64,000 nt of DNA from an uncultured Chloroflexia bacterium. Lineage in GTDB: Bacteria > Chloroflexota > Dehalococcoidia > DSTF01 > JALHUB01. A program made the translations under genes and the position numbers. The notes beneath the pieces were generated by a model that searched no databases, was not told the DNA's origin, and saw only the letters and a program-made list of their open reading frames with translations. The stretch is taken from contig OY969814.1 in the NCBI GenBank assembly GCA_963703345.1, positions 2,112,001-2,176,000 on the forward strand, given 5' to 3'. Positions 1,733-63,548 of this stretch are shown piece by piece (positions within the stretch are counted from its first letter, which is position 1; every line of letters starts with the position of its first letter).

Positions 1733-1951
1733 ATGCTAGACAAATTGGTAGTGAAGTTGATGGTCCTGAAGATGTGGCTCAGCGACGACCACGGCCAGGA
1801 CATCATGGAGTACGCTCTGCTGGGCGGCTTCATCGCCCTCGCGGCAGCGGCGGCGTTCGTGCTTCTCCCCATTGGGAGCTACATGAACGCGTTCGCGGGG
1901 ACGATCGGCAACTGCGTCAATCTGGGGGCCGCCAACTACGCTTGCCCCTAG
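1733..1951 (+). CDS. flp: Flp family type IVb/IVc major pilin
   Basis: 72 aa with G|QDIMEYALL prepilin motif (E+5, Y+6) followed by a hydrophobic helix; GAGGA before the ATG; first gene of the tad cluster. Confidence 0.9.
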   Translation: MLDKLVVKLMVLKMWLSDDHGQDIMEYALLGGFIALAAAAAFVLLPIGSYMNAFAGTIGNCVNLGAANYACP

Positions 1952-1967
1952 GATTTCGTCGGAACAT

Positions 1968-2001
1968 GGGGGTGCCCGCCCATACGGGCACCCCTCCTTT
2001 C
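1968..2001 (+). terminator. Hairpin after flp (partial terminator or mRNA-stabilising stem)
   Basis: GGGGTGCCCG-CCCATA-CGGGCACCCC followed by TCCTTT. Confidence 0.6.
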
Positions 2002-2013
2002 TTGGAGAGGGCG

Positions 2014-2517
2014 ATGAGCAAGAAGGATCGGCAACGTGGCCAAGCAATAGTTGAGTTTGCCATCCTGACGCCGGCCATATTTCTTTTCATTTTCATCATC
2101 GTGGACATGGGCATCGGGTTATCGCATTACGTGGTACTTACGAACGCCGCCCGCGAAGGTGCCCGCTATGCCGCCGCCGGAGCGCCGTCGGATAGCGGCT
2201 GCTCGCAGGCGTCGGTGGTCGACCGGGTGAGATGCAAGACCCTGGCACATGCGCAAAACCTCATATCCGACCCCCAGAAGATTGACGTGGCCTTCATTGA
2301 CAGAAATAGTAACGGCCAGGTTGACCCAGGCGACTCCGTGGTGATAAGGATCCACTACAGCTACAAGCTCATAACGGCCCTTGGTCTTTCCAATCGCATC
2401 GGTTGGCTTAGGTGGCCGGGCATTCAACCTCTAACAATGAACTCATGTGAAGATATGCGACTGGAACAGGTGACGAGCGATGCTAAGATTACACCATTGG
2501 CCACTCCCTGCTCCTAG
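2014..2517 (+). CDS. tadE: TadE-like minor pilin
   Basis: MSKKDRQRG|QAIVEFAIL, TM segment, LTNAAREGARYAA motif; RBS GGAGAGG. Confidence 0.85.
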   Translation: MSKKDRQRGQAIVEFAILTPAIFLFIFIIVDMGIGLSHYVVLTNAAREGARYAAAGAPSDSGCSQASVVDRVRCKTLAHAQNLISDPQKIDVAFIDRNSNGQVDPGDSVVIRIHYSYKLITALGLSNRIGWLRWPGIQPLTMNSCEDMRLEQVTSDAKITPLATPCS

Positions 2518-3841
2518 CTTTCGGAGGGCCGCGCCAAGCGCCCTCGTCAGGGGAGAACGGGGGCAAACGATCTTCTTCATGTTGCTGATCATACCCCTCT
2601 TCGCGATCGGCGCGGCAATCGCGATCGATTCCGGCGTCTGGTACTTGCACCGTCGAGCTCACCAGAACACGGCCGACGCTTCGGCGCTGGCGGGAGCCCA
2701 GGAATTGCTGTCCCGCACAAACTTGAACGACATGGTCAACCGGGCCACGCTGGCCGCGGACAATTGGAAGGGGTTCAACAATGACCCTCCCGCGGACTTT
2801 GCCAACGGTACGCCAACCGTACTGCCGAATTGTTGGGGGGTGCCCTCTTACGATGGCCTGCCTGACGGAGTCACTGTGGACGTGTCAAAGGATGCGCCGT
2901 TGCTCTTTATGAGGGCATTCAAGGTGGCGGGCTTCAATATCGGCGCCCATGCCAAGGTGTGTGTGGGCTCGCCTCAGACGGCTGATATGTTTCTGCCGTT
3001 GGGTATACCCATCCTGGACTCTTCGTGTTTCAGAACTGACCCTCTTACCGGCCAGCGCGTACCGCTATTCGGGCAGGAGTGCAGTGTTGCTCTTAAGGTC
3101 TCTGCCAGCAATTCCGGCGAGGGACAGTACCTCAAACTCTATGACGATTGGAGCCAACCAGGGTGCAGCGAAGGTGCCAACGGCATAAACAACAACGTAA
3201 TCACGGCCCAGTTCGATCGCGGTGCGCACACTTGGTGTGCTGTGGCCCTTCCGGGCTCCTCCTGTCCTGCCTCCGGTAACCCTGCCGTGGGGTACTGCAT
3301 CGAGTCGGATACAGGAAACAGGTCAAAGGCCGCTATGCAAGGACTTAATGCACGACTGGGGCGGGAAGGAGCGTGCAACAGTCTCTACGGACCGGATTTC
3401 GGAACCAGCGGCAACGGTATCGACGATTGGTGGGAGGCTTTGTGCGCGGAGGGGGTGGGTTGCGGGCCGGCGTTGCGCTCCGTAACGCCGGGACCGAATG
3501 TTACGTTTGTAAAGCGCGACTGCTCATCGGACGGATCGGGGCTTACTTCCCCCCGGCTCGTGAATCTCCTCCTTGTGGATCGATTCCCGTCCGGTGGTAA
3601 CTGCACGGGCCAACACACCTGCCCAATTCGCGGGTTCGCGGGCTTCTTTATTCAAGGCTGCTATGATGACGCGAACCAGAACGGGCAACGTGATGCGAAC
3701 GAACCTCTTGATCCAAAGTGCGGTAACGTCAACAGCGGCCACGCTGCCATCCAGGGTATGTTCATCAACTATGTTGATATCGGCGGGCCGGGAGCGCCGG
3801 CAACTCCCTACGGAAGAATGCAGCTTTACTTAGTTCAATAG
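2480..3841 (+). CDS. TadG-like pseudopilin with large Cys-rich C-terminal domain (putative tip adhesin)
   Basis: ERG|QTIFF, TM segment, then IDSG..Y..R...QNTADASALAGA Tad-domain motif; many Cys in the C-terminal region; start uncertain. Confidence 0.8.
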   Translation: MLRLHHWPLPAPSFRRAAPSALVRGERGQTIFFMLLIIPLFAIGAAIAIDSGVWYLHRRAHQNTADASALAGAQELLSRTNLNDMVNRATLAADNWKGFNNDPPADFANGTPTVLPNCWGVPSYDGLPDGVTVDVSKDAPLLFMRAFKVAGFNIGAHAKVCVGSPQTADMFLPLGIPILDSSCFRTDPLTGQRVPLFGQECSVALKVSASNSGEGQYLKLYDDWSQPGCSEGANGINNNVITAQFDRGAHTWCAVALPGSSCPASGNPAVGYCIESDTGNRSKAAMQGLNARLGREGACNSLYGPDFGTSGNGIDDWWEALCAEGVGCGPALRSVTPGPNVTFVKRDCSSDGSGLTSPRLVNLLLVDRFPSGGNCTGQHTCPIRGFAGFFIQGCYDDANQNGQRDANEPLDPKCGNVNSGHAAIQGMFINYVDIGGPGAPATPYGRMQLYLVQ

Positions 3842-3853
3842 CGGAGGAAGAGC

Positions 3854-4687
3854 ATGGCAAGTCAAATGTCCAAGGTATCAAGAGGGTCCGGGCGCGGACT
3901 GCTGCTGCTGGCCCTGCTCTTCGCAATCGTGGCGGCCATCCTTGCCTTCGTCGCCCTCGGCCGCGGCAGCAATAACAACAAGAACGAAGCCGCCGCCTCC
4001 GACACGAAGACGGTCGTCGTCGCCGCACAGGACATAGCGGCGCGCACGACCCTCGACAGCAGCATGCTCAAGCTCGCCGACGTGCCGAAGGACAGCGTCC
4101 TTGCCAACGGCTACTCGTCCACCGATGCCGTCGTCGGCCAGACGACCCGCTACCCGCTCGTAGAGAACGAGCAGGTCACAGCGTTGAAGATAGGCGTCAC
4201 CAGCGACACGAAGGACCAGGGGCTTTCGGCCGTCGTGCCGTCGGGCACGCGTGCCTTCTCCATCACAATATCCGAGGAAAGCAGTGTCGGCGGCCTCGTC
4301 CTGCCCGGCGACCTGGTGGATATCATCGCCATCTTCGACTCCGGCCTCGTCGGCGTCGACAAGAGCGTAACGCTTCTCCAGAACATCGAGGTACTGGCCG
4401 TGGCGCAGGAAGCGCAGGAGGCCGTCCCGCCGGTCCAGGCGACTCAAACGGCGACGCCCGTGCCGTCTGGGACTCTGGGGGAGCGCCCGTCGGACGTCAA
4501 GCCGAACCCCAGTGCGCGCACGGTGACGCTGGCGGTGACAGAGGACCAGGCGCAGCTCCTGGCGCTGGTGCAGGCGCAGGGCAAGCTGGCGCTGTCGCTC
4601 CGCTCCTACGGCGACCACGCCACAGGCACGCCTGCGGAGACCGACCTTACCCAATACGGCGCCGTACGGAAGGCCCCATCCCCCTAG
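3854..4687 (+). CDS. cpaB: Flp pilus assembly protein CpaB/RcpC
   Basis: N-terminal TM, SAF-like VVVAAQDI, GLVLPGDLVDII, LLQNIEVLAV, VTLAVT...LALSLRS. Confidence 0.9.
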   Translation: MASQMSKVSRGSGRGLLLLALLFAIVAAILAFVALGRGSNNNKNEAAASDTKTVVVAAQDIAARTTLDSSMLKLADVPKDSVLANGYSSTDAVVGQTTRYPLVENEQVTALKIGVTSDTKDQGLSAVVPSGTRAFSITISEESSVGGLVLPGDLVDIIAIFDSGLVGVDKSVTLLQNIEVLAVAQEAQEAVPPVQATQTATPVPSGTLGERPSDVKPNPSARTVTLAVTEDQAQLLALVQAQGKLALSLRSYGDHATGTPAETDLTQYGAVRKAPSP

Positions 4688-4696
4688 GAGTGAATA

Positions 4697-5938
4697 ATGG
4701 CGAAAATCCCCGCTGTGCTAGTGATCGATCAGGACGCGAAGGCCCGCTACGAGTTGAAGAAGGCCATCAAGCAATCGAACTTCGTTATCGCCGGTGAGGC
4801 CGGCTTCGGCACCGAGGCGGTATCGACAGCGGTGGAGCTGAAGCCCGACGTCGTGCTCCTGGGCATGCGCGAGCCGGTCGTGCGCTCGATGCAGACCGTG
4901 GAGTCGCTGCTCAACGCCCTGCCGGAGACGCCGGTCATCGTCTATTCGTCGTCGCGCGACATCGACCTGGCGCGTCGGGCCATGCTGGCGGGCGCCCGCG
5001 ACTACTTGACGATGCCCGCGAGCACGGACGAAGTCGGCCGGTCCATAGTCTCCGTGCTGGAGTCGGAGGAGCGGCGGCAGATGCGGCTGCGCGGACAGAC
5101 GGCCGCCTGGGGCCCGCAGGGCAGCGTCATCGCCGTCTTTGGCGCCAAGGGAGGCGTCGGCAAGACGACAGTGGCGGTAAACCTGGCGGCGGCGCTTGTG
5201 CAGGAGACCGGGCAGTCGATCGTGCTGGTGGACGGGGACAACGGCTTCGGCGACGTCTGCGGGATGCTGGACATGCAGCCGGAGCGCAGCATCGTCGACC
5301 TGGCGCGCGACCTGTCGAAGGTGACGCGCGACACGCTCCCCAAGTACCTGATGCAACATTCGAGCGGGCTCAACGTGTTGGCCGCGCCGTCGCAGACGAT
5401 GGACTGGCGCAGCATCAAGCCCGACGACTTCCGCAAGATAATGGAACTGCTCTCCAAGAGCCATGACATTGTCGTTATCGACACCGCGGGCATCTTGAAC
5501 GATCTGACGCTGGCCGCTCTCCAGGCCGCGTCGCTGGTGCTATGGGTCGTGACGACTGAGTTCGCGAGCGTGCGCGATTCGCTGCGGGCGCTAGAGGCGT
5601 TGCGATCGGCGTCGTACCCGGAGGACAGGGTGCGCGTGATCACGAACGACCTGGCGACGCGCGACGGCGTCCGCACAACGACGATCGAAGAGGTGATGGG
5701 ACACGAGGTGTTCTGGAAGGTGCCCTTCGACCAGAAGGTGCGTCGCGACTCCCAGATCGGCGAGCCGGCGGTGCTGAAGCACCCGTTGACGGCGGGGGCG
5801 CGCAACCTCACAGACCTGGCACGGACGGTAGTCGGCATCAAGCCGGCGCGCCGGGGTCTATTCACTCGCTTGGGGCTATCCAGGGGCTGGGAAGGTGAAC
5901 GTCAGCGTAAGACCACCACAAAGGAGAGCCAGGCGTGA
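4697..5938 (+). CDS. cpaE: CpaE/TadZ: receiver domain plus MinD/ParA-like ATPase
   Basis: N-terminal atypical receiver (phosphoacceptor Asp appears replaced: DVVLLG); deviant Walker A KGGVGKTT. Confidence 0.85.
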   Translation: MAKIPAVLVIDQDAKARYELKKAIKQSNFVIAGEAGFGTEAVSTAVELKPDVVLLGMREPVVRSMQTVESLLNALPETPVIVYSSSRDIDLARRAMLAGARDYLTMPASTDEVGRSIVSVLESEERRQMRLRGQTAAWGPQGSVIAVFGAKGGVGKTTVAVNLAAALVQETGQSIVLVDGDNGFGDVCGMLDMQPERSIVDLARDLSKVTRDTLPKYLMQHSSGLNVLAAPSQTMDWRSIKPDDFRKIMELLSKSHDIVVIDTAGILNDLTLAALQAASLVLWVVTTEFASVRDSLRALEALRSASYPEDRVRVITNDLATRDGVRTTTIEEVMGHEVFWKVPFDQKVRRDSQIGEPAVLKHPLTAGARNLTDLARTVVGIKPARRGLFTRLGLSRGWEGERQRKTTTKESQA

Positions 5939-7284
5939 TGAAAGAAATAGACGAGACCACAGAAATGGCGCGGCCGCCCATTCAAGTCGTACCCGACGAG
6001 GACGGACAGCGCATGTCCGAGGAAGAATTCGAGCTGGTGTTCAACGTCCATCAGAACCTGATCCGCGAGATCGACCTCGAGGCGGTGGAGAAGTTGGCTC
6101 CGGCGGAGGCGAGGGAGGCGGTGGAGGTGACGGCGCGTACCCTGCTGGGGCAGCTCGCGCCTTCAGTTTACGGCGAGGAGAAGGAGCGCGTCGTGCACCG
6201 CGTCGTCGACGAGGCGATCGGCCTGGGGCCTATCGAGCCGCTGCTCGGCGACACGTCGATCTCCGAGGTCATGGTCAACGCGCCGGACGAAGTCTACTAC
6301 GAGCGCGACGGCATCATGTACCTCTCGGACGTGCGCTTCCGCGACAAAGTGCACATCATGCGCATCATCGACCGGATCATCTCGCCGCTGGGTCGCCGCG
6401 TCGATGAGTCGTCGCCCTACGTTGACGCCCGCTTGCCGGACGGCTCGCGCGTCAACGTCATCATCCCGCCGCTGGTGCCCAAGAGCCCCATCCTGACGAT
6501 ACGCAAGTTCCGGCCGGACAAGTACACCATCGCGGACCTCATCGGCAACAACACGCTGACGGAGCAGCTATCGGATTTCCTCCAGGCGTGCGTGCGTCTG
6601 CGGTTGAACACGGTGATCTCCGGCGGCGCCGGCACCGGCAAGACGACGTTGCTCAACGCGATCTCCGCCTATATCCCGAGTAGTGAGCGGATCATTACCA
6701 TCGAAGACCCCATTGAGCTGAAGCTCCAGCAGAGCCACGTGATCTGCATGGAGGGACGGCCGCCGAACATCGAGGGCAAGAATGAGGTGACGCAGCGCGA
6801 CCTGTTCCGCAACGCTCTCCGTATGCGCCCGGACCGCATCATTGTCGGCGAAGTGCGCGGCCCAGAGGCGTTCGACATGATGCAGGCGATGAACACCGGC
6901 CACGAGGGGTCGATGACCACAGTACACGCCAACTCCACGCGCGACGCCCTGGCCCGCATCGAGAACATGGTGCTTATGGCCGGCCTCGATCTGCCCGTGC
7001 GCGCTATCCGCGAGCAGATGGCTTCGGCATTCCACCTCATGGTGCACCTTAGCCGCTCTGCCGACGGCCGCCGTCGCGTCACGCTTGTAAGCGAGATCAC
7101 GGGCATGGAGTCCCAGGTCGTCACGATGCAGGACCTCTTCCGTTTCGAGCAGACAGGCATCGACGCAGAGGGTCGCCTCTTTGGCGTCCTTGAGCCGACG
7201 GGCATCATGCCCACGTTCATGGACCGCTTCGCCAAGAGTGGCGTTAGCCTCGACTGGGGCGTACCGACCGGACTCAGGTTGTAA
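5935..7284 (+). CDS. cpaF: CpaF/TadA pilus assembly ATPase
   Basis: [47 protein letters not shown]. Confidence 0.95.
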
Positions 7285-7287
7285 CTC

Positions 7288-8253
7288 ATGGTAGCCGGAC
7301 TTGCCGCAGCCTTCGTCCTTGTCGCGCTGCTTTGCGCCGCTGTCGGGTTCTACATGATGAATGCCGGCGGCGAAGAGGAGAGGCGTCTGCGCACCCTCAA
7401 GGCGCAGGGCTCCGCGCAGGGGGCGGAGGCGCGTTCATTGCTGCGACGCAGCGCCTCCGCAATACCCACGTTGCGGCGCGCCCTCGACACGAGCAGTTGG
7501 GCCGACCGCGCGGCCCTCGATCTGGACCGCGCGCATATCAGCCTGCGCGTCGGCGAGTACTTGATGATACGCATCTTTACGGCCGCGCTCCTGCTCGCGA
7601 TTCCCCTGCTCGTAGCTCATGGGCAAATCGTCGGGCTATTCGTGGCGATACCGCTGGCGCTCGTGGGGTTCATGCTTCCGGCCCTCTACGTGACGCTGAA
7701 GAAGCGACGCCGGCTGCACGCAATCGACCGCCAGCTCGTCGAAGGGCTGAGCCATATTGCCAACTCCATTCGTGCGGGCTTCGCGATGTTGCAGGCAATC
7801 GATGCCGCAGCTCAGCGGCTACAGCCGCCGCTGTCGGAGGAGTTCTCACGACTTGTCACTGACGTACGCCTCGGGGCAAGCCTGGAGGATGCTCTGACGG
7901 CGATGGGCGACCGTGTGGGCAGCTACGACCTAGACATGGTGATCACGGCGATCCTCATCCAGCGCAGCACCGGCGGCAACCTGTCGGAGGTGCTAGACAA
8001 CGTCGCAGAGACTATCCGGGAGCGAGACCGCATTACCGGCGAGGTGCGCGTGCTGACGGCCCAGATGCGTTTCGCGGCGTCGGTGCTTTCGCTCTGGCCG
8101 GTAGCGTTGGGAGGCATCTTCTTCCTGCTGAACCCGAACCTAATGTCGAACCTGTGGACGGAGCCGGCGGGAGTTGTCTTGCTCGTCATAGCAGTCGTGC
8201 TGCAAGTACTCGGATTTTTCACGATACGACGTATTGTTGCCATTGAGATATAG
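7288..8253 (+). CDS. tadB: TadB (T2SSF family) platform protein
   Basis: TM segments, IRAGF...[22 protein letters not shown]. Confidence 0.9.
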
Positions 8254-8261
8254 GTCGTGAG

Positions 8262-9173
8262 ATGTTCCTGCCAATCCTGAGCTCGGTCTTCGTCTTTCTC
8301 GCCGTAGGGTCGGTGGCCGTCTGGCGATTCCAGCAGGCGAACGCCCAGCTCAACGCCCGACTGCAGGCGCTGGCCGATCAGAGGGCGCAGTCGCTTGCCT
8401 TACGCGACATTCCTTTCGAGCATCGCGTGGTGTTGCCGGTCGTCGATGGCATTGCGAGCGCAATAATCGCCGCCCTACCGCCGGCGTTTATTGCCCGAAC
8501 GCGACGCACTCTCGTCGCCGCCGGCGACCCAATGGCACTCGTCACGTTTTTTGCGCTCGTCATCCTCCTGGCTGTGATGCTTCCGGGGACGTACCTCATC
8601 GTCGCCTACGCGGCTAACGGCAGCGCGCTTTCCGCCAAGATTATTCTTGGCGCGCCGCTGTTTGCGCTTCTCGGCGTGATGGTGCCATTCCTCTGGCTGC
8701 GACGTCGCGCCAGCCGGCGCCGGCTCATAATCTGGCGCGGCCTACCAGACGCCTTCGACCTGATGACGACCTGTGTCGAAGCCGGTCTGGGGCTCGACTC
8801 CGCCTTCCAGAAGGTTTCGGAAAAGCTCGGCGGCCCCGTCTCCGATGAGTTCGCGGAGATGCTACGCGAGGTGGCGATGGGCAAGACACGCCGCGAGGCT
8901 CTGCGTGACATGGGGGAGCGCACGGGTGTGCCCGACCTTCAGGCTTTCGCCAACACCATCGTTCAGGCGGAAGAGTTGGGAACGAGCCTGGGTGCAGCCT
9001 TACGGGCCCAAGCGGCCGATATGCGCCGCCGCCGCCGGCAGCATGCCGAAGAAGAGGCGCGGCGCGCACCGTCGAAGATGGTATTCCCTCTCGTCTTCTT
9101 CATCCTTCCCTCACTGTTCGTGGTCATCCTCGGACCGATCGCCATTGAGTTGATAAAGACTTTCAACAGTTAG
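8262..9173 (+). CDS. tadC: TadC (T2SSF family) platform protein
   Basis: LPDAFDLMTTCVEAGLGLD, QAEELGTS, KMVFPLVFFILPSLF. Confidence 0.9.
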   Translation: MFLPILSSVFVFLAVGSVAVWRFQQANAQLNARLQALADQRAQSLALRDIPFEHRVVLPVVDGIASAIIAALPPAFIARTRRTLVAAGDPMALVTFFALVILLAVMLPGTYLIVAYAANGSALSAKIILGAPLFALLGVMVPFLWLRRRASRRRLIIWRGLPDAFDLMTTCVEAGLGLDSAFQKVSEKLGGPVSDEFAEMLREVAMGKTRREALRDMGERTGVPDLQAFANTIVQAEELGTSLGAALRAQAADMRRRRRQHAEEEARRAPSKMVFPLVFFILPSLFVVILGPIAIELIKTFNS

Positions 9174-9186
9174 CGAGGGTCGTGTC

Positions 9187-10512
9187 GTGAAGGCCAAGAA
9201 ACATGTTGACGGACACGGCTCCCCCGCAGCACCAGACGACCACTATCGTCTCCTTCAACTGGATCCCGATGCCCCTCAACAACTGATCGCCGAGGCGTAC
9301 TGGTTTCTGGCCAGCCGGTTGCGCGCCGAAAAGCTCGTCAGGAGAAGCGCCGAACGCGAGCTCGTCGGGCTGAACGCCGCCTACCAGATCCTTGCCGTCG
9401 CCGAGCAGCGGCGCGCTTACGACGCGACGGTTGCGCGGGTGCTCGACCTCCGACGAGAACGCGCGGAGAGGATCGACGCTAGCCGGCAGTCGTTCCCGGG
9501 GCGTCTGTTCAGGAAACCGCAGCGGCCTCAGGTCGATTTCTACGAGTTGCTACGAGTCGATCCCGCTGCCGAGCCGCCGCTTATCGCGCGCGCCTACTCG
9601 ATGCTGCGGATGCTCCATTCGAAGAAAGCGGCCGGCGAGGCGCCGAAGGAATACCTCAGCGAGCTGGCGCAGGCGCGGGCCGTCCTCCTCGACCGCGCGC
9701 GTCGCGCCGCCTACGACAAGTCGCGGTTACAGCCGGCACCCGCGCCCGAAGCGAAGCCCGCCGAGGCGCCGGAAGTAGCTGCCGAGACCGTCGCCGTCAA
9801 ACCGAAGGCGGTAGAGCGGCCGGAAAGGCCTGCAAGCCCCGGGTGGCAGGCGCGCGCGGCGCCGGCAATGTCGAAGGCGCTCGGCGCCGCCGCGAAGGGA
9901 GGCGGTCGGCTCGCTGTTGCCAGTGGACGGATAGGTTATCGCGGCCTCTCCGTGACGGCAAAAGGCGGCGCCAAAGGTTTCGCAGCGACGCTCCGGGCCG
10001 GCGGGCGTGCCGCCGAGCGGTTGCGATCGTCGGAACCGGTCAAGAGGCCAGCGGCTCCGCTACCTGACGACCGCCTGCTCCGGGACATCTCTCCGGCGGC
10101 GAGAGCGCGGAGAATGGCGCTCGATGGCCCTCGCCACGGCCGCCTCGTCGTGCACAGTCCGGAGGGTCAGGAGGAGACAGTTGACCTAGGTGAGGAGCCC
10201 GTCACCCTGGGCAGCGACCGCGAGTGCGACGTTCGACTGGCCGCAGAGCCTGGGCCGGTGGCGCCCGCGCACGCTCAGATCTGGTTCACGGGAGAGCGTT
10301 TCGTCATCCGCTCCCTCGACCCGATACACCCGACAGTTCTCTGCGGGCAGAGAGTGAACTGGGCCGGCCTCGACGACGGCGACGAAATCGAGATCGGGCC
10401 GCACCGCTTGAGATTCGAGGCAGCCCATGCCTTGGACGCCCCGCCTGAATTCCTGACAACGGAACGCAACGCCGCAACCCGCGGGGAAGAAATTCCGGAA
10501 AGGCACGAATAA
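9187..10512 (+). CDS. Protein with two degenerate DnaJ-like domains and a C-terminal FHA-like domain
   Basis: Two D-x-Y-x-LL-x-x-DP...AY...RxAYD repeats, both lacking HPD; C-terminal VTLGSDRECDVRL...HAQI...LDDGDEIEIG. Confidence 0.7.
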   Translation: MKAKKHVDGHGSPAAPDDHYRLLQLDPDAPQQLIAEAYWFLASRLRAEKLVRRSAERELVGLNAAYQILAVAEQRRAYDATVARVLDLRRERAERIDASRQSFPGRLFRKPQRPQVDFYELLRVDPAAEPPLIARAYSMLRMLHSKKAAGEAPKEYLSELAQARAVLLDRARRAAYDKSRLQPAPAPEAKPAEAPEVAAETVAVKPKAVERPERPASPGWQARAAPAMSKALGAAAKGGGRLAVASGRIGYRGLSVTAKGGAKGFAATLRAGGRAAERLRSSEPVKRPAAPLPDDRLLRDISPAARARRMALDGPRHGRLVVHSPEGQEETVDLGEEPVTLGSDRECDVRLAAEPGPVAPAHAQIWFTGERFVIRSLDPIHPTVLCGQRVNWAGLDDGDEIEIGPHRLRFEAAHALDAPPEFLTTERNAATRGEEIPERHE

Positions 10513-10513
10513 G

Positions 10514-11821
10514 ATGCGCAACCCTTCCCAGACGGCTGAGCCGGAAACAGTAGATGAGCAGATGCCGCGCGAGCCCGCGTTCTTGCGGGACACGGGCCTG
10601 GACACAGGATTTATCATCGAGCTGGTGTTGAAAGCGCTCTACTACAGCGCACGCCCGACGGCCGGCGATCTTGCGGACACGCTGGCCCTCTCGCTTCCGG
10701 TGATGCAGGAGGCCCTGGCGCTGCTCACGCGCGACGGCCTTTGTGAGATCGTTGCCGGCGAAGGACAGGGACCCGCCAGCTACCGCTACCGGCTAAGCAG
10801 CCGCGGCCTGGAGCGCTCAGCCAGCGCCTTCGAGCGCAACTCTTACGTGGGGCAGGCACCGGTGCCTCTGAAAGACTACATCGCCCAGGTGCGACTTCAG
10901 TCTGCGGGCGGTAGCGGCTTCACCGCAGAGGTCGTCCAAAAGGCGCTCTCCCAGCTCGTGCTCAGCGAACACACCAGCAATCGCGTCGGACGGGCGATAT
11001 CCTCCGGCCGGCCGACGCTTATCTACGGCCCTTCGGGAAACGGCAAGACAACAATTGCACACCTGCTCGGCCAGGCGCTTTCCGGCTATATCGCAATCCC
11101 ATACTCTCTGGAGGTATACGGCCACATCGTCCGGCTCTTCGATCCTTCAAAGCACCAGTTGGCGGAGTACGCTGAAAAGGGAAGGGACGTACGCACGCGC
11201 AGGCACGACCGTCGCTGGGCGATCACGCGGCGCCCCGCTGTGATGACGGGCGGCGAACTGACGCGTCAGGGCCTGGAGCTCGTGCTCGACGAGCGATCGA
11301 AGGTCTACGAGGCGCCGCTGCAGATGAAGGCTAACGGCGGCATCCTGATCATCGACGACTTCGGCAGGCAGCAGATACCGGCGGTGGAGCTACTGAACCG
11401 CTGGATCGTCGCGCTCGAGGGCGGCGTCGACCACCTGTCGCTGCACACGGGCCAGACAATCGAAGTGCCATTCGACGTCATTCCATTCTTCTCCACCAAC
11501 CTGCCGCCGGAATCCCTGGCGGACGAGGCATTCCTGCGTCGGATTCGCTACAAGGTGGAGATACCGGACCCCACAGACGAGGAGTTCCGGGCGATCTTCA
11601 CGCAGGTCTGCTACGACCAGAGAGTCGTTCTCCGACCCAGCGCGATCGATTACCTGTTCAAGCGCTGGTACGTGCCGCAGAAACGGGCGCTACGCGGCTG
11701 CCATCCGCGCGACTTGGTGGAGGCAATCGTCGATTCCACGCGATACAGCGACGGCGGCACGCCTACGGTAACGACACAGTCGCTGGACGAGGTCTGCCAC
11801 ACCTACTTCCTCACCGACTAA
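10514..11821 (+). CDS. Tad-locus-associated AAA-family ATPase
   Basis: Walker A GPSGNGKT, Walker B LIIDDFGRQ, STNL, DEAFLRRIRYK, LRGCHPRDL. Confidence 0.85.
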   Translation: MRNPSQTAEPETVDEQMPREPAFLRDTGLDTGFIIELVLKALYYSARPTAGDLADTLALSLPVMQEALALLTRDGLCEIVAGEGQGPASYRYRLSSRGLERSASAFERNSYVGQAPVPLKDYIAQVRLQSAGGSGFTAEVVQKALSQLVLSEHTSNRVGRAISSGRPTLIYGPSGNGKTTIAHLLGQALSGYIAIPYSLEVYGHIVRLFDPSKHQLAEYAEKGRDVRTRRHDRRWAITRRPAVMTGGELTRQGLELVLDERSKVYEAPLQMKANGGILIIDDFGRQQIPAVELLNRWIVALEGGVDHLSLHTGQTIEVPFDVIPFFSTNLPPESLADEAFLRRIRYKVEIPDPTDEEFRAIFTQVCYDQRVVLRPSAIDYLFKRWYVPQKRALRGCHPRDLVEAIVDSTRYSDGGTPTVTTQSLDEVCHTYFLTD

Positions 11822-54443: not shown

Positions 54444-54593
54444 CGCATCGCGGAGTCTTCGGACCCGACGGTTGATACCGTCACTTATCGACCTCACAGA
54501 CGCGAATCCATAGCTGAATTCTTGATAACGCGTAAACTCGTTTTTGGTTAACGATAGGCCGCAAAAAGGCGACGATCTTCCTCGCCGCACCTA

Positions 54594-54622
54594 TTGACAA
54601 GCGCTGATGGCCGGTGTAAGGT
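54594..54622 (+). promoter_or_regulatory. Sigma70-type promoter with no downstream ORF
   Basis: TTGACA, 17-nt spacer, TAAGGT. Confidence 0.6.
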
Positions 54623-54626
54623 TATA

Positions 54627-54760
54627 GGTGCCCCAAGTGGCGGACCCGCGGTCTACCGGTGGACGAATCCGGGGAACCTGAGGCGAGGGCCCCAAACCTG
54701 AGCCGAGGAGATAACCGGAGGAGGACGAAGCCGAAACGCGGAGAGGTTACTTGGGGTATT
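54627..54760 (+). ncRNA. Candidate structured small RNA (family unknown)
   Basis: Starts about 5 nt after the -10; 15-bp closing stem GGUGCCCCAAGUGGC/GUUACUUGGGGUAUU; nested stems CCGCG/CGCGG, GUCU/GGAC, CCGGU/ACCGG. Confidence 0.55.
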
Positions 54761-55709
54761 GCTTTGCCCGCGCCGTCTGCCTGCCGGTAGGCATGGCCTG
54801 CTCCTCCATCCAGCCGGGCTTCAGCGTGGCGATAAACCCCAGATTGCGGTAGAGCTGACCGTAGTCCAGCCCGTAGCCGACGACGAACTCGTCCGGTATC
54901 TCGAAGCCGACGTAGTCCAGCGGCACGTCCACGAGCCTTCGCGCCCGCTTGTCGAGGAGAGTGCAGACTTTCAGCGTCGCCGGCTTACGCGCGCGCAGGT
55001 ACGTCAGCAGATGGTTCAGCGTCATACCCGTGTCGACGATATCCTCGACTAAAAGCACATCGCGCCCTTCGATGCTCTCGTCCAGGTCCTTTAAGATGCG
55101 CACGTAGCTGCTGTCGGCGCTGTCGTACGACGAGATCGCCATGAAGTCGATGGCGACGGGCAGCGAGACCTGACGCATCAGGTCGGCCATGAAGCAGGCC
55201 ACGCCCTTGAGGACCCCGATAAGCACCGGCGACTTGCCGGCGTAGTCCTTCGATATCTGGACGCCGAGCTCCTTCACCCGCCGTCGGAGCTGCGGCGCGC
55301 TCACCAGCACCCGGTGCACGCCCTCGATGTTGCGCGGTTGCGGCGGCCCAAAGCCGTACTTGGCGAGAAGGCGCAGGTAGTCGCGTTTGTTCAGCAGCTT
55401 GACGTCGATGTCTGGATGAAGCTGCCGCAGAGTGCGCAGCTTGCGGTGCTTCTCCGTCATCAGGTCCTGCCGGAGCGTCGTCAGCTCAATGTACGTGTCG
55501 ATGTCGGGCAGGTAGAAGTCGGGGGTGAAAGCCTCGAGGACCTTGTCGCCCTCGGAGCGGAGAGTGAAGGTGCGCGGCTCGTATTGCCAGGAGATGCCGT
55601 AGAAGTCGAGGATCTTGGCGAATTCCGCCTCGCTCTCGTGGGCGAAGCGGACCGCGGGAGGCGCCATCTCGGCGTTTCCCGCTGCTGTTCCCGAATTCTC
55701 CATCGACAT
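54747..55709 (-). CDS. hpt: Hypoxanthine phosphoribosyltransferase with N-terminal PD-(D/E)xK-like domain
   Basis: C-terminal half: GVLKG, LLVEDIVDTG.TL, LLDK, FVVGYGLDY...RNL; N-terminal half: SEAEFA..LD...W.YEP..F...TPDFYLP...YIELT. Confidence 0.88.
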   Translation of the reverse strand: MSMENSGTAAGNAEMAPPAVRFAHESEAEFAKILDFYGISWQYEPRTFTLRSEGDKVLEAFTPDFYLPDIDTYIELTTLRQDLMTEKHRKLRTLRQLHPDIDVKLLNKRDYLRLLAKYGFGPPQPRNIEGVHRVLVSAPQLRRRVKELGVQISKDYAGKSPVLIGVLKGVACFMADLMRQVSLPVAIDFMAISSYDSADSSYVRILKDLDESIEGRDVLLVEDIVDTGMTLNHLLTYLRARKPATLKVCTLLDKRARRLVDVPLDYVGFEIPDEFVVGYGLDYGQLYRNLGFIATLKPGWMEEQAMPTGRQTARAKQYPK

Positions 55710-55869
55710 CGTCGCAGCCCTCACTTAAACGCTACCGTGTCTGCAGGCCATGTTCAAGTGGGAAGGCGTTCGCTTGCGATGGCGAGTCTGCGCGGTGTTT
55801 CGGTTGATTCATCATCCTGTGGCTGATAGTCTTTAGGCATCGGGCGCTGAACGAGAGAGGTGGTCGGCC

Positions 55870-59750: not shown

Positions 59751-60122
59751 GGAAAACCCCTCACCGCAGCCAGACTCAGGCGGCCACGCCGCTTCGCCGG
59801 TCTCCCAATCGGCGTAATTCCCAAAGGAGCCACGGATCAATGGTTTCCTGGCGTTCCTCAGCGAGTTCCCCTGATTGAACCCGCCCCTCTGAGTGAGCGA
59901 CCATACTTCAAGCGCCCGACTATTGCTGGAAAGGAAACCGCATGGAGCTCATCGCTAGATGTGGCCAAGGGCATAACCGAAGGGCGGCTCGTCTTCGGAA
60001 AGTCACCGACTAAACCTACCGGTGAGCCGTGACCAACTCGTGACGAAGATGACCGTTAGTGTGTGCCGGAGCAGCGCGTCACCCGGGTGGAGATGCCGCT
60101 TCCCGGACAGAGGGAGAGAGCA

Positions 60123-63100
60123 ATGAGAACGAGAATCCGCCTGGTTGCCGGAAGCACGGCGATAGTCGCGCTTGCTGTCTTGTCGGGTCTCATCTTCGCA
60201 GCTCCCACCAAGAGCGGTGCAGACGATGCTGTGCAGTTCACACTCGATTCCTCCAGCTACAGCGCCGCGGTGGGGGATACGTTTGACGTCAAGGTCAACC
60301 TGGGAGTGCTAACCAACAACGTCTCGCTCTTCGCCTTCCGTCTTCCCTACGACCATGACACCCTGCAGATCATCAGCACTGTTCCGGACAATCCCGCGCC
60401 GTGTCCATCGGGGCTAAGCGATGTCGAGATACTGGACTGGGACTACAACGGCCTGGCGCTGCGCCTCCAATGCGAGAGCGTTGACGGGAGCGCCGATCCG
60501 CCTTTGACCGGGACCGCCCAACTGATAGACATCACATTCCAATGCGCCGCAGCGGGCAGCACTAGCCTTCAGATTGGCGCCCAAAACGCGATTGATGCCG
60601 ACGGCAACAACTACGGCGCGACTGCCGGGCCGGCCGCAGGCGTCGTCTGCAACGACGCCCAGTTGACCATCGTCAAGCACGTTGTGAACGATGACGGCGG
60701 CGAAGCGGACGCTTCCGACTTCACCATGAGCGTCACCGGCACTAACGTGCAGCCTTCCGACAGCTTCGCCGGCAACGAGGACGGCACCACCGTCACCCTC
60801 GACGCCGGCCCCTACTCCGTCGGTGAGACCGGCCCAAGCGGTTACAGCAGGAGCGACTCCGTGGACTGCTCGGGGACAATCGCTCTCGGTGAGTCGAAGA
60901 CCTGCACCATCACCAACAACGACGAGCCCGGCACGCTGACCGTTATCAAGCATGTCGTGAACGACGACGGCGGCGCGAAGGTCGCCGGGGACTTCAGCTT
61001 CAGCGTGAACGGTGGCGATCCGACCTTCTTCAGTCAGGACCCGGAGGACGCCAGCCTGGGTGAGAACAGCCTGACGGAGGACGCGGGCACCTACAGTGTG
61101 GTCGAGGCCGGGGTACCGATTAGCGGCTACACGACGACGTACGACAACTGCGCCGACGTCAGCATCGCCAACGGTGAGACGCAGACCTGCACCATCACCA
61201 ACGACGACACAGCTCCGACGCCCACTGGGACGCCAACAGACACGCCGACGGTGACGGATACGCCCACTGAGACGCCGACTGAGACGCCGACCGACACGCC
61301 GACGGTGACGGATACGCCCACTGAGACGCCGACTGAGACGCCGACCGACACGCCAACGGTGACGGATACGCCCACTGAGACGCCGACGGTGACGGATACG
61401 CCGACCGACACGCCGACGGTGACGGATACGCCGACTGAGACGCCGACGGTGACGGATACGCCGACTGAGACGCCGACGGTGACGGATACGCCAACCGACA
61501 CGCCGACGGTGACGGATACGCCAACCGACACGCCAACGGTGACGGATACGCCGACCGACACGCCAACGGTGACGGATACGCCGACCGACACGCCGACGGT
61601 GACAGATACGCCGACTGAGACGCCGACTGAGACGCCGACGGCGATACCAACCGTGCAGTTCGCACTCGATTCCCCCAGCTACACCGCCGACGTGGGACAT
61701 ACATTCCACGTCATCGTCAGCCTAGGAGACCTGACGAACAACGTCTCGATCTTCGACTTCCGTCTTCCCTACAACCATGGAATCTTGCAGGTCGTCGCCA
61801 CTGTTCCGGACAATCCCAACCCCTGCCCATGGTTGCTGGACGACTACGAGAGGTTGAACCGGGACTACGCCGGTGTGGGATTGCGCTTCCAATGCGACAA
61901 CTTCAGCGGGGGCGCTAATCCGGCTCAGAGCGGGACCGTCCAACTGATAGACATTACGTTCGAGTGCACCGCAGCGGGCAGCGCTAGCCTTCAGATTGGC
62001 TCCCAGTACGCGATTGATGGCGACGGCATAGACTACGGCGCGACTGCCGGGCCTGCCGCGGACGTCGTCTGCAACGAGGCCCCGGCAACCGACACGCCGA
62101 CGCCGACGGATACGCCAACTGAGACGCCGACGGATACGCCAACTGAGACGCCAACGGTGACGGATACGCCAACCGAGACGCCGACCGACACGCCAACGGT
62201 GACGGATACGCCAACTGAGACGCCGACCGACACGCCAACGGTGACGGATACGCCAACTGAGACGCCGACCGACACGCCGACGGTGACGGAGACGCCGACC
62301 GAGACGCCAACGGTGACGGATACGCCAACCGAGACGCCGACCGACACGCCAACGGTGACGGATACGCCAACCGAGACGCCGACGGTGACACCAACCGACA
62401 CGCCGACGGCGACACCAACCGACACACCGACGGTGACACCAACCGACACGCCGACGGTGACGGATACGCCGACTGAGACGCCGACCGACACGCCGACGGT
62501 GACGGAGACGCCAACCGACACGCCGACGGTGACAGATACGCCGACTGAGACGCCGACGGTGACACCAACCGACACGCCGACGGCGACACCAACCGACACA
62601 CCGACGGCGACACCAACCGACACGCCGACGGTGACACCAACCGACACGCCGACGGCGACGGATACGCCGACTGAGACGCCAACGGTGACGGATACGCCGA
62701 CCGACACGCCGACGGTGACGGATACGCCGACTGAGACGCCAACGGTGACGGATACGCCGACTGACACGCCGACGGTGACGGATACGCCAACCGAGACGCC
62801 GACCGACACGCCAACGGTGACGGATACGCCGACTGAGACGCCGACGGTGACACCAACCGACACGCCGACGGCGACACCAACCGACACACCGACGGTGACA
62901 CCAACCGACACGCCGACGGTGACGGATACGCCGACTGAGACGCCAACGGTGACGGATACGCCAACCGAGACGCCGACGGTGACACCAACCGACACGCCGA
63001 CGGCGACACCAACCGACACACCGACGGCGACGCCAACCCAGACGCCAACGGTGACGGATACACCAACCGACACGCCGACGGCGACACCAACCGACACACC

Positions 63101-63548
63101 GACGGCGACACCAACCGACACACCGACGGCGACACCAACCGACACGCCGACGGCGACGGATACGCCGACTGAGACGCCAACGGTGACGGATACGCCGACT
63201 GAGACGCCGACGGTGACGGCGACCGCGATCGCCACCGCGACAGCGACAAGCGTGTATCATCGGTCGGCGACGGCCACCAGCACTCCCCTTCCGACGGATA
63301 CGCCGGCGGCCACGGCTACGCCGACCAATGGACGCCAGCCAGCGGCGCCACAGGCACCTGTCGAGGGGCCCGGCTCCGGCCCGCCACCAAACGGAGGTGC
63401 AGCCGGCGCAGGAGTGACGGCGCCGAAGACGGGGGAAGCCGACCCCGCGACCGGTGACAGTGCTTACATAATGGTCGCGGCACTCTTGGGTGCGCTGGCC
63501 GTGGCGCTCACGCTGACCAGTCTCGCCATGCGCAAGCAGAGGTTCTAG
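60123..63548 (+). CDS. Large surface protein: cohesin-like, 2 x SpaA/prealbumin-like, PT linker, cohesin-like, long PT linker, APKTG sorting signal
   Basis: Signal peptide; duplicated 141-aa domain ([11 protein letters not shown]...F.LPYD...LQI...LIDITFQC...G...LQI); [13 protein letters not shown]...TCTITNND x2; APKTG, TM, RKQRF. Confidence 0.85.
61217..61640. repeat. Coding tandem repeat of 12/18-bp units ([14 protein letters not shown])
   Basis: Directly visible. Confidence 0.9.
62088..63218. repeat. About 1.1-kb coding tandem repeat of 12/18-bp units
   Basis: Directly visible; about 375 aa of T/P/D/E/V/A. Confidence 0.9.

Follow-up and report, generated by a model that had tools for sequence, protein, structure and literature searches.

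A promoter-driven RNA gene convergent with hpt

In the window, by which we mean the whole 64-kb stretch of DNA that was analysed, a non-coding RNA gene of 129-132 nt (~130) is located at 54627..54758 on the plus strand and converges with a 325-aa fusion gene on the minus strand (54747..55724), identified from the ORF list and profile searches, that joins a nuclease-fold domain to HPRT. The RNA gene is preceded by a −35 box TTGACA at 54594..54599 (+) and, after a 17-nt spacer, a −10 box TAAGGT at 54617..54622 (+). This promoter, claimed in a first-pass annotation, was verified in the sequence: TTGACA with its 17-nt spacing was exact in 16/16 loci of the host family, TAnnnT was found in 15/16, and a TGAC-type −35 box occurs in most of 46 diverse members of the RNA family described below. 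As only 3/6 positions of the −10 box match, the site went unlisted in a simple promoter scan. No ORF of at least 60 aa starts between the promoter and the end of the RNA, in agreement with the earlier statement that none lies downstream. Further along the window, at 60063-63548 (+), a 1161-aa protein of secreted type is encoded in which, as judged by eye, Pro/Thr repeats form very long linkers and the C-terminus carries a sortase-like signal.

The plus strand folds at −60.4 kcal/mol with a 15-pair closing stem (z −2.9, 3/200 shuffles being equally good) as against z −0.73 for the minus strand, which upholds the original preference for the plus strand and its 15-bp closing stem. From the fold, the covariation and the adapter-bounded ends of contigs from relatives, we infer a 5′ end at 54627-54630 and a 3′ end at 54758. 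The terminal helix, with its 5′ strand at 54629..54641 and its 3′ strand at 54746..54758 (+), comprises 13 pairs that are 98.5% paired in 15 host-family sequences. It is the defining, sequence-conserved element of the RNA family and a likely protein-binding site, and it likely doubles as a terminator together with a T-rich tail at 54759..54766 (+); such a tail is found throughout the RNA family and also served as a filter in one family scan. A pseudo-palindrome in the terminal helix was not distinct enough to be put forward (self-pairing 0.75 at offset 0 and 0.68 at offset −3). Further inside, the stretch 54656..54672 (+) provides one strand of a short helix, the 5′ side of a purine-rich central loop and the 5′ strand of an inner helix, and the corresponding 3′ parts lie at 54715..54733 (+). 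The 5′ side of the loop holds an invariant G-A-C, with the C at 54664 being nt 38 of the RNA, and the 3′ side keeps GG-GG-YGAR across the order. An apical hairpin with tandem G-A mismatches is predicted by the fold at 54677..54708 (+). Two 12-nt modules had been reported here, and both are present, at 54677 and 54697; they are strands of the one apical helix rather than loop modules, and these strands are not kept as repeats beyond the genus.

The hpt ORF ends at 54747, so that its stop region and the 3′ strand of the terminal helix share 12-14 nt, as had been pointed out, but the overlap is not conserved and the antisense relation is incidental. The convergent arrangement, the overlapped stop and a terminator-like hairpin on the minus strand beyond the RNA gene (54569..54588) could be taken to mean that the RNA is a cis-antisense regulator of hpt or shares a terminator with it. 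Two such hairpins were found against 1.9 expected by chance, and the present one is kept, with changes, only in 5 loci of the genus as judged by eye; were hpt transcripts to end there, their 3′ UTR would be antisense to the RNA gene over its full length. An action on hpt of this kind is nevertheless very improbable, as the RNA is co-directional with hpt at several loci (L098, L099, L101, L105-L108), is not adjacent to the hpt fusion in 31/59 genomes of the order, occurs in multiple copies at unrelated sites and shows more internal covariation than a terminator needs.

Covariation, Rfam searches and transcription in relatives

One copy of the RNA was found in 16/18 host-family genomes by blastn and in 18/18 by the covariance model R1. 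Covariation in homologues, one of the checks suggested with the first-pass annotation, came out in favour of the RNA: in 15 host-family sequences picked by blastn, 94% of the cells pair and 8/28 pairs change on both sides, compared with 3.2±1.3 in shuffles (0/500 as high) and 0-2 in slid controls, the structure having been derived from the same 15 sequences as were tested. In the inner helix 5/5 pairs change on both sides in this set, and in the terminal helix 10/13 do so in 48 diverse members, a set chosen partly by pairing. A cmscan-type comparison, also suggested at the outset, yielded no known family, and the RNA is absent from Rfam 15. No match at the gathering score was obtained in the 64-kb window, where at E≤10 only three chance-level matches appeared, low-score snoRNA matches among them, and gathering-level scans of 40 related loci placed no family over any RNA member.

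Metatranscriptome contigs of related organisms from runs X3 and X5 cover 54624-54758 at a summed depth of 1,758-10,672, with flanks at ≤3.4 and no run-on. Loose contig ends at 54630 and 54756 carry 3 and 2 extra letters, respectively, which we take to be sequencing adapter. Contigs of run X2, which belongs to a second study whereas X3 and X5 come from one, stop at the same 3′ position. At the RNase P locus, used as a control, X3 and X5 cover the RNA alone and X2 almost only the RNA, so the three runs behave as RNA libraries even if X3 and X5 are flagged 'probably DNA'; run X1 covers flanks, is DNA-like and was left out. The contigs thus show a discrete transcript in relatives with matching ends, strand and level being beyond their reach, and the promoter-driven, structured plus-strand RNA proposed at first is supported by fold, promoter, contigs and covariation alike.

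Distribution and anatomy of the RNA family

The RNA had been regarded as lineage-specific, which proved too narrow, as the family spans the host class, other Chloroflexota and Acidobacteriota. With model R1, members were found in 59/93 genomes of the order (58/92 without the unpublished G042). Model R2, which comprises promoter, RNA and tail and was built from 48 sequences whose selection depended in part on helix pairing and hpt proximity, matched 48/151 genomes of the class and 21/151 of the phylum, three of the latter being false on inspection. Scans yielded the Acidobacteriota members L119, L149, L150, L263 and L280 and one Armatimonadota candidate, L169; R2 gives them low scores or none, and they were assigned by promoter, helix sequence, tail and position (L280 without position). 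Model R3, made of promoter and 5′ strand, was too weak and missed its own training genome G236, so the R3 scan is no test of co-occurrence in Acidobacteriota; 19 of its 28 matched loci were inspected and included one real member (L280, in the domain-positive G254), and within the order R3 gave no match under E 0.09 in domain-negative genomes. A loose scan for stems that used no promoter filter picked up many false positives in coding sequence and was superseded.

Members measure 79-451 nt from stem to stem (59 members) and occur in 1-7 copies per genome, some genomes having 3-7 among unrelated genes. Single rods are folded by 43/59, the remaining 16 are branched, and it is the long members that branch. 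Common to all is the sequence-conserved terminal helix; the interiors are variable and rich in purines, with an average purine share of 0.63 and 65-94% purine at unpaired positions. A loop-E-like RGUA-helix-GAA motif is found in 20/59 members versus 6.4±2.4 in shuffles and is absent from the RNA at 54627..54758. The longest members noted are L263:1019-1408 (390 nt), with repeated purine-rich hairpin modules, and L280:1532-1983 (451 nt), and an extra 5′ leader hairpin precedes the terminal helix in L119, L263 and L156. A different unannotated promoter-driven RNA of ~125 nt with a terminator end was seen at L324:144-313 (−) and L325 (genomes G463 and G523); the two genomes, both Chloroflexota and of the same genus, have it in conserved form, and it falls outside the present family. 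In the genome of the window (G000), two stretches that are nearly identical over at least 50 nt, at G000:C1:1446467 (−) and 2203626 (−), are possibly a repeat or a duplicated RNA element.

The GGA motifs, of which the present RNA has 8 and long members up to 20, would together with the varying copy number and the presence of CsrA in the host genome suit a sponge for CsrA/RsmA. The hallmark of CsrB and RsmYZ is repeated ANGGA in hairpin loops. Here ANGGA occurs 0 times, the GGAs lie in internal loops and helices with none in the RNA's one hairpin loop, and one member has a single GGA. Besides the host genome, CsrA was found in G236 and was not found in G201, G186, G103 and G288, that is in 4/5 other holders, three of which are 99-100% complete. 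A CsrA sponge is accordingly scarcely credible. The protein sequestration proposed at first is retained in the best reading with another likely partner, the nuclease-fold domain fused to hpt, which had gone unmentioned at first, and not by way of CsrA and GGA. The host csrA lies at G000:C1 189312-189467, and a weak two-piece CsrA-like match was seen in a 117-aa frame at G000:C1:1153996-1154214 (−).

A T7-endonuclease-I-like domain coupled to HPRT

In the fusion gene the HPRT domain covers residues 139-301 (54822..55310, −; TIGR01203, 210 bits, cut-off 150). The other part, which comes first in the protein, is an unnamed 110-aa T7-endonuclease-I-like domain of PD-(D/E)XK fold (55335..55664, −), for which no family was found in Pfam or NCBIfam. 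Its likeness to endonuclease I was seen with a PDB profile (E 6.3e-6), and atlas neighbours agree. The domain model (pLDDT 84.7) folds as PD-(D/E)XK/Vsr-type, and fold matches at Z 6-8, scores near 8 being often reached by unrelated models, include mitoribosome chains, Bax1, I-Bth0305I and Vsr. Mitoribosome chains reached Z 8.2, with 91 residues aligned at rmsd 4.1, and the FASTKD4 RAP module reached Z 5.7; Foldseek gave no match for the domain at E≤0.001. RNA binding by this fold has precedent, since mitoribosome chains and the RAP module stand among the matches beside nucleases, and RNA-binding RAP domains of the same fold are known in the literature consulted. The acidic motif residues of the fold are kept. 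An invariant Thr aligns to the Lys of the E-x-K motif, which is catalytic in endonuclease I, and the invariant K72, K75 and R77 might serve as its substitutes.

The domain is 55-70% identical across phyla. The triad survives REARRANGEMENT: hpt is found in 72/80 domain loci from many phyla, the other 8 being cut short. It is fused to the domain, adjacent or within about 3 kb, as also in 13/13 Acidobacteriota loci, and the RNA of L119, L149, L150, L263 and L169 sits on the opposite strand in the space separating the domain and hpt genes. A GAF domain precedes domain and HPRT at L088:1462-2871, and in L149 and L150 (Acidobacteriota) about 220 N-terminal residues resemble, by eye, a cytidylate-kinase-like domain; both partners suggest nucleotide-sensing inputs. 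The host genome has a second HPRT-like gene without the domain (G000:C1:1950526-1951005, 42% identical), so the fused copy may be specialised. In Acidimicrobiia and other Actinomycetota (L109-L172) a stand-alone domain follows hpt by about 2-3 kb with no RNA member detected beside it, and in L109 and L112 glycine riboswitches lie just downstream of the stand-alone domain.

The pairing of a purine-rich RNA with a nuclease fold could also mean that the domain has the RNA as its substrate, an abundant purine store or ballast cleaved when needed, HPRT being a sensor or a salvage step. Besides the base composition given above, the freedom of the interior in length and copy number, the retained acidic residues and the coupling to purine salvage would agree with this. 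The Thr in place of the motif Lys does not, breakdown of RNA gives nucleotides for which HPRT is not needed, and the tertiary-type RGUA-helix-GAA motif, enriched over shuffles, suggests a shaped RNA. We regard a substrate role as improbable.

Co-occurrence of the RNA and the domain-HPRT module

Among 93 genomes of the order, RNA and domain were found together in 59, the RNA without the domain in 0, the domain without the RNA in 4 and neither in 30. The corresponding numbers in a class sample of 151 genomes were 46, 2, 17 and 86, and in three of the 17 the RNA was recovered by locus search. In a phylum sample of 151 genomes, 17/21 model matches were domain-positive, and of the four others one was a real member and three lacked the closing helix. 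The RNA without the domain occurs in G099, G223 and G432, assemblies of 120-320 contigs each. R2 was trained largely on domain-adjacent copies and hence favours the association, which is not so for R1, and Fisher values for the association overstate it because kin are not independent. Both partners are absent from G170, G229 and G513 (99% complete, two of them single-contig), genus-mates of G186, which has both, and also from family f5 (21/21), G051, G058/G059, G066 and G071; some of these joint losses may be single deletions. Five genomes without RNA and domain lack HPRT as well, so the domain and HPRT are indistinguishable as partner by these losses.

Of the 59 RNA-bearing genomes of the order, 28 have the RNA next to the domain and 16 at a distance of 1.7-16 kb; in the other 15 the two are on different contigs. 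The association is not simply one of neighbourhood, and extra RNA copies lie among unrelated genes. The reverse dependence does not hold: domain-positive genomes without detected RNA numbered 14/63 in the class after locus searches and 23/40 in the phylum sample, only 3/13 domain-positive Acidobacteriota genomes have the RNA, it was found beside the domain in 0/7 further loci, and none was seen beside it in Actinomycetota and most other non-Chloroflexota loci. The RNA is thereby shown to depend one-way on the domain-HPRT module, and since the module is often without it, the role of an obligatory antitoxin falls away for the RNA unless members escape the models.

Relation to 6S and other housekeeping RNAs

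SRP RNA, RNase P RNA and tmRNA were each located elsewhere in the host genome over cut-off, in line with the earlier exclusion of these classes, and no tRNA was called in the family loci. The RF00013 model gave no match in the window, nor in the host genome at E≤10; no 6S was found there after aspS or before tig, and a profile of four 6S sequences of the class reached a best E of 6.8. The lack of a 6S match in the host genome at first pointed us to a divergent 6S, an idea in favour of which the published sRNA1 (below) can be cited. Rfam 6S matches occur in only 4/151 class genomes, three of them over cut-off, leaving 147 without; of these matches (L084-L087) two lie after aspS and one before tig. 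All four genomes also carry the new RNA, and outside the class canonical 6S over cut-off was found in 4/5 holders tested, three Acidobacteriota and one further Chloroflexota. The RNA is therefore not a 6S orthologue, and of the divergent 6S-like RNA proposed at first only a 6S-like function survives, as a live rival. The genomes concerned are MAGs, those of the class with 1-9% contamination; contamination might account for a single case, but it is unlikely to explain eight cases of coexistence in two phyla.

In Dehalococcoides mccartyi CBDB1, a 187-nt, Rfam-negative sRNA1 between tRNA-Arg and hpt has been called a putative 6S on the grounds of size, abundance, fold and antisense reads; it was reported as the third most abundant RNA, accompanied by small antisense transcripts (excerpts of PMC12961961). 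Our locus L202 has the same layout of tRNA-Arg, RNA and hpt, the published −35 hexamer and an RNA of 182 nt plus tail, to be compared with 187, that is closed by the same terminal helix as the RNA at 54627..54758. R2, trained with L202 included, matches two further genomes of its genus at 53-55 bits. By layout, promoter, length and helix, sRNA1 is likely a member of the new family. In the parts of PMC12961961 available, neither a family beyond the species, nor a link to the fused domain, nor coexistence with canonical 6S is described.

A second decoy for RNA polymerase, which would mimic an open promoter like 6S, bind the housekeeping holoenzyme, template short product RNAs from the central loop and act as a substitute where 6S was lost, with the hpt link explained by GTP control or by the fused domain turning the RNA over, has to be weighed against this background. 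Like 6S RNA (RF00013), the RNA has a strong promoter, a closing stem with U-tail and, in the window and throughout the order, the shape of a rod whose central loop is asymmetric. Among the conserved positions of the loop's 5′ side, nt 38 with its invariant C is the only pyrimidine, and GTP-initiated product RNAs of B. subtilis 6S-1 start at nt 40 (PMC8876501, as excerpted). On the 3′ side A, U/C and G are placed like A131, U135 and G136 of E. coli, a likeness that weighs little since mutating any of them left E. coli binding unimpaired (both from excerpts of PMC8876501). Single rods predominate in the family (43/59), Rfam 6S is missing from the host genome and from 147/151 genomes of the class, and the abundance and antisense transcripts of the Dehalococcoides member fit a decoy, although the antisense reads could be hpt read-through. 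The length of 129-132 nt lies below the 6S norm of about 160-200 nt (PMC8876501, PMC11077062, excerpts), which does not exclude a decoy, since polymerase-binding RNAs of 85 and 516 nt exist (excerpts of PMC11077062).

Against such a decoy stands first the coexistence with Rfam 6S in 4/4 class genomes with a match and 4/5 outside holders. The 6S features of the central loop (the C of nt 38 on its 5′ side, A-nnn-Y-G on its 3′ side) fade beyond the order, the loop motif being found in only 9/59 members and the position of GAC being weak there (17/51 versus 10.8±2.9 shuffled). Unlike in 6S, the conserved part is the terminal helix and not the bubble, the purine share of 0.63 exceeds the 0.48-0.54 of six canonical 6S RNAs, and the RNA lacks a model match, spans 79-451 nt, has 1-7 copies where 6S has one or sometimes two, occurs beside canonical 6S and is tied to a protein module. 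Finally, 86/151 class genomes have neither a family match nor the domain. On these points a polymerase decoy is less likely than the reading preferred below, to which it is the main rival.

A putative RNA-protein module

The RNA is probably a new RNA-protein system rather than a 6S. In the reading that we prefer, with a rough probability of 0.45, the domain binds the terminal helix, is held in check by the RNA and is gated by purine nucleotides through HPRT. We infer that the partner would be the domain rather than HPRT and that it would bind physically, the nuclease fold docking on the terminal helix and the adjoining purine-rich loop. The RNA would then act as a structured decoy that holds the domain in check, and HPRT, by sensing PRPP, GMP or (p)ppGpp, might gate its release. 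A terminal helix that is held constant around an interior free to vary would suit a binding site with cargo, as in Y RNAs. Modulation of purine-salvage phosphoribosyltransferases by (p)ppGpp is known, as is PyrR as an RNA-binding phosphoribosyltransferase (PMC13328217, seen in excerpts). This reading and that of a 6S-like decoy are not mutually exclusive. Seen more broadly, and at similarly tentative odds, the RNAs may form an undescribed multi-phylum class of RNPs in which an abundant modular RNA is held by its terminal helix on a resolvase-derived domain with HPRT and a nuclease-fold effector is coupled to purine and alarmone status; the class would include the Dehalococcoides '6S', and most Dehalococcoidia would have no canonical 6S.

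In the literature searched, only PMC12961961 was found to describe a member, and neither the family nor its link to a protein turned up elsewhere, the supplement of PMC11109978 and 6S literature on Chloroflexota aside. A motif from Dehalococcoides is reported in PMC11109978, whose screen therefore likely took in a genome of that genus; its main text, in the parts available, holds no hpt-linked motif, and its supplement may list the RNA. What is new is thus probably the RNA family and its link to the module, one member having been known as a putative 6S, and the published 6S assignment in Dehalococcoides is put in question. Few abundant bacterial RNA classes have a dedicated protein partner, and each has revealed new biochemistry. 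The system is small, with a 110-aa domain amenable in vitro, and the RNA occurs in an organism that is in culture and of environmental importance, the third most abundant transcript there according to the published report. Should the preferred reading be true, a role would be given to an unnamed domain that is conserved across phyla almost always with HPRT, and an RNA would be linked to purine salvage. If the polymerase decoy were true, a second, 6S-independent class of such decoys with lengths of 79-451 nt would be at hand.

Comparison with known RNA systems

In type III toxin-antitoxin systems a repeat-array RNA is co-transcribed upstream of a nuclease-type toxin gene. The pairing of an RNA with a nuclease-type protein is shared, but the new RNA has no tandem repeats upstream of the protein gene; it has its own promoter and lies downstream, between the genes or at a distance, often on the opposite strand, and the module is vertically inherited and chromosomal with the protein often lacking the RNA. 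The best PADLOC match had E 0.003 over 48 residues. The polymerase-binding RNAs Ms1, CoRP and scr0792 are likewise abundant, varied in length and found in lineages without 6S (excerpts of PMC11077062), but belong to different lineages with different neighbours; the new RNA has no Rfam match and its polymerase binding is putative. On the protein side, the partner domain resembles T7 endonuclease I and RAP/Vsr-fold domains in sequence profile and fold, and differs from T7 endonuclease I in the Thr for the motif Lys, its 55-70% identity across phyla and its constant coupling to HPRT.

The bacterial Y RNAs with Ro60/Rsr share conserved paired ends with a variable interior, several paralogues, a gene near that of the protein and an occurrence essentially restricted to genomes with the protein (excerpts of PMC4201824). 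The Y RNA motif GNCGAAN(0-1)G lies near the 5′ end beside a tRNA-like domain (same source); the new RNA has GNCGAA at nt 36-41, without the closing G and outside the terminal stem. TROVE/Ro60 protein was found in 0/5 holder genomes, the positive control matching 2/14. The new RNA differs from Y RNAs in having no tRNA-like domain and a nuclease-fold domain joined to HPRT as its candidate partner, and it is its fixed helix, its free interior and copy number, and its failure to persist without one protein module that give it a Y RNA/Ro60-like look.
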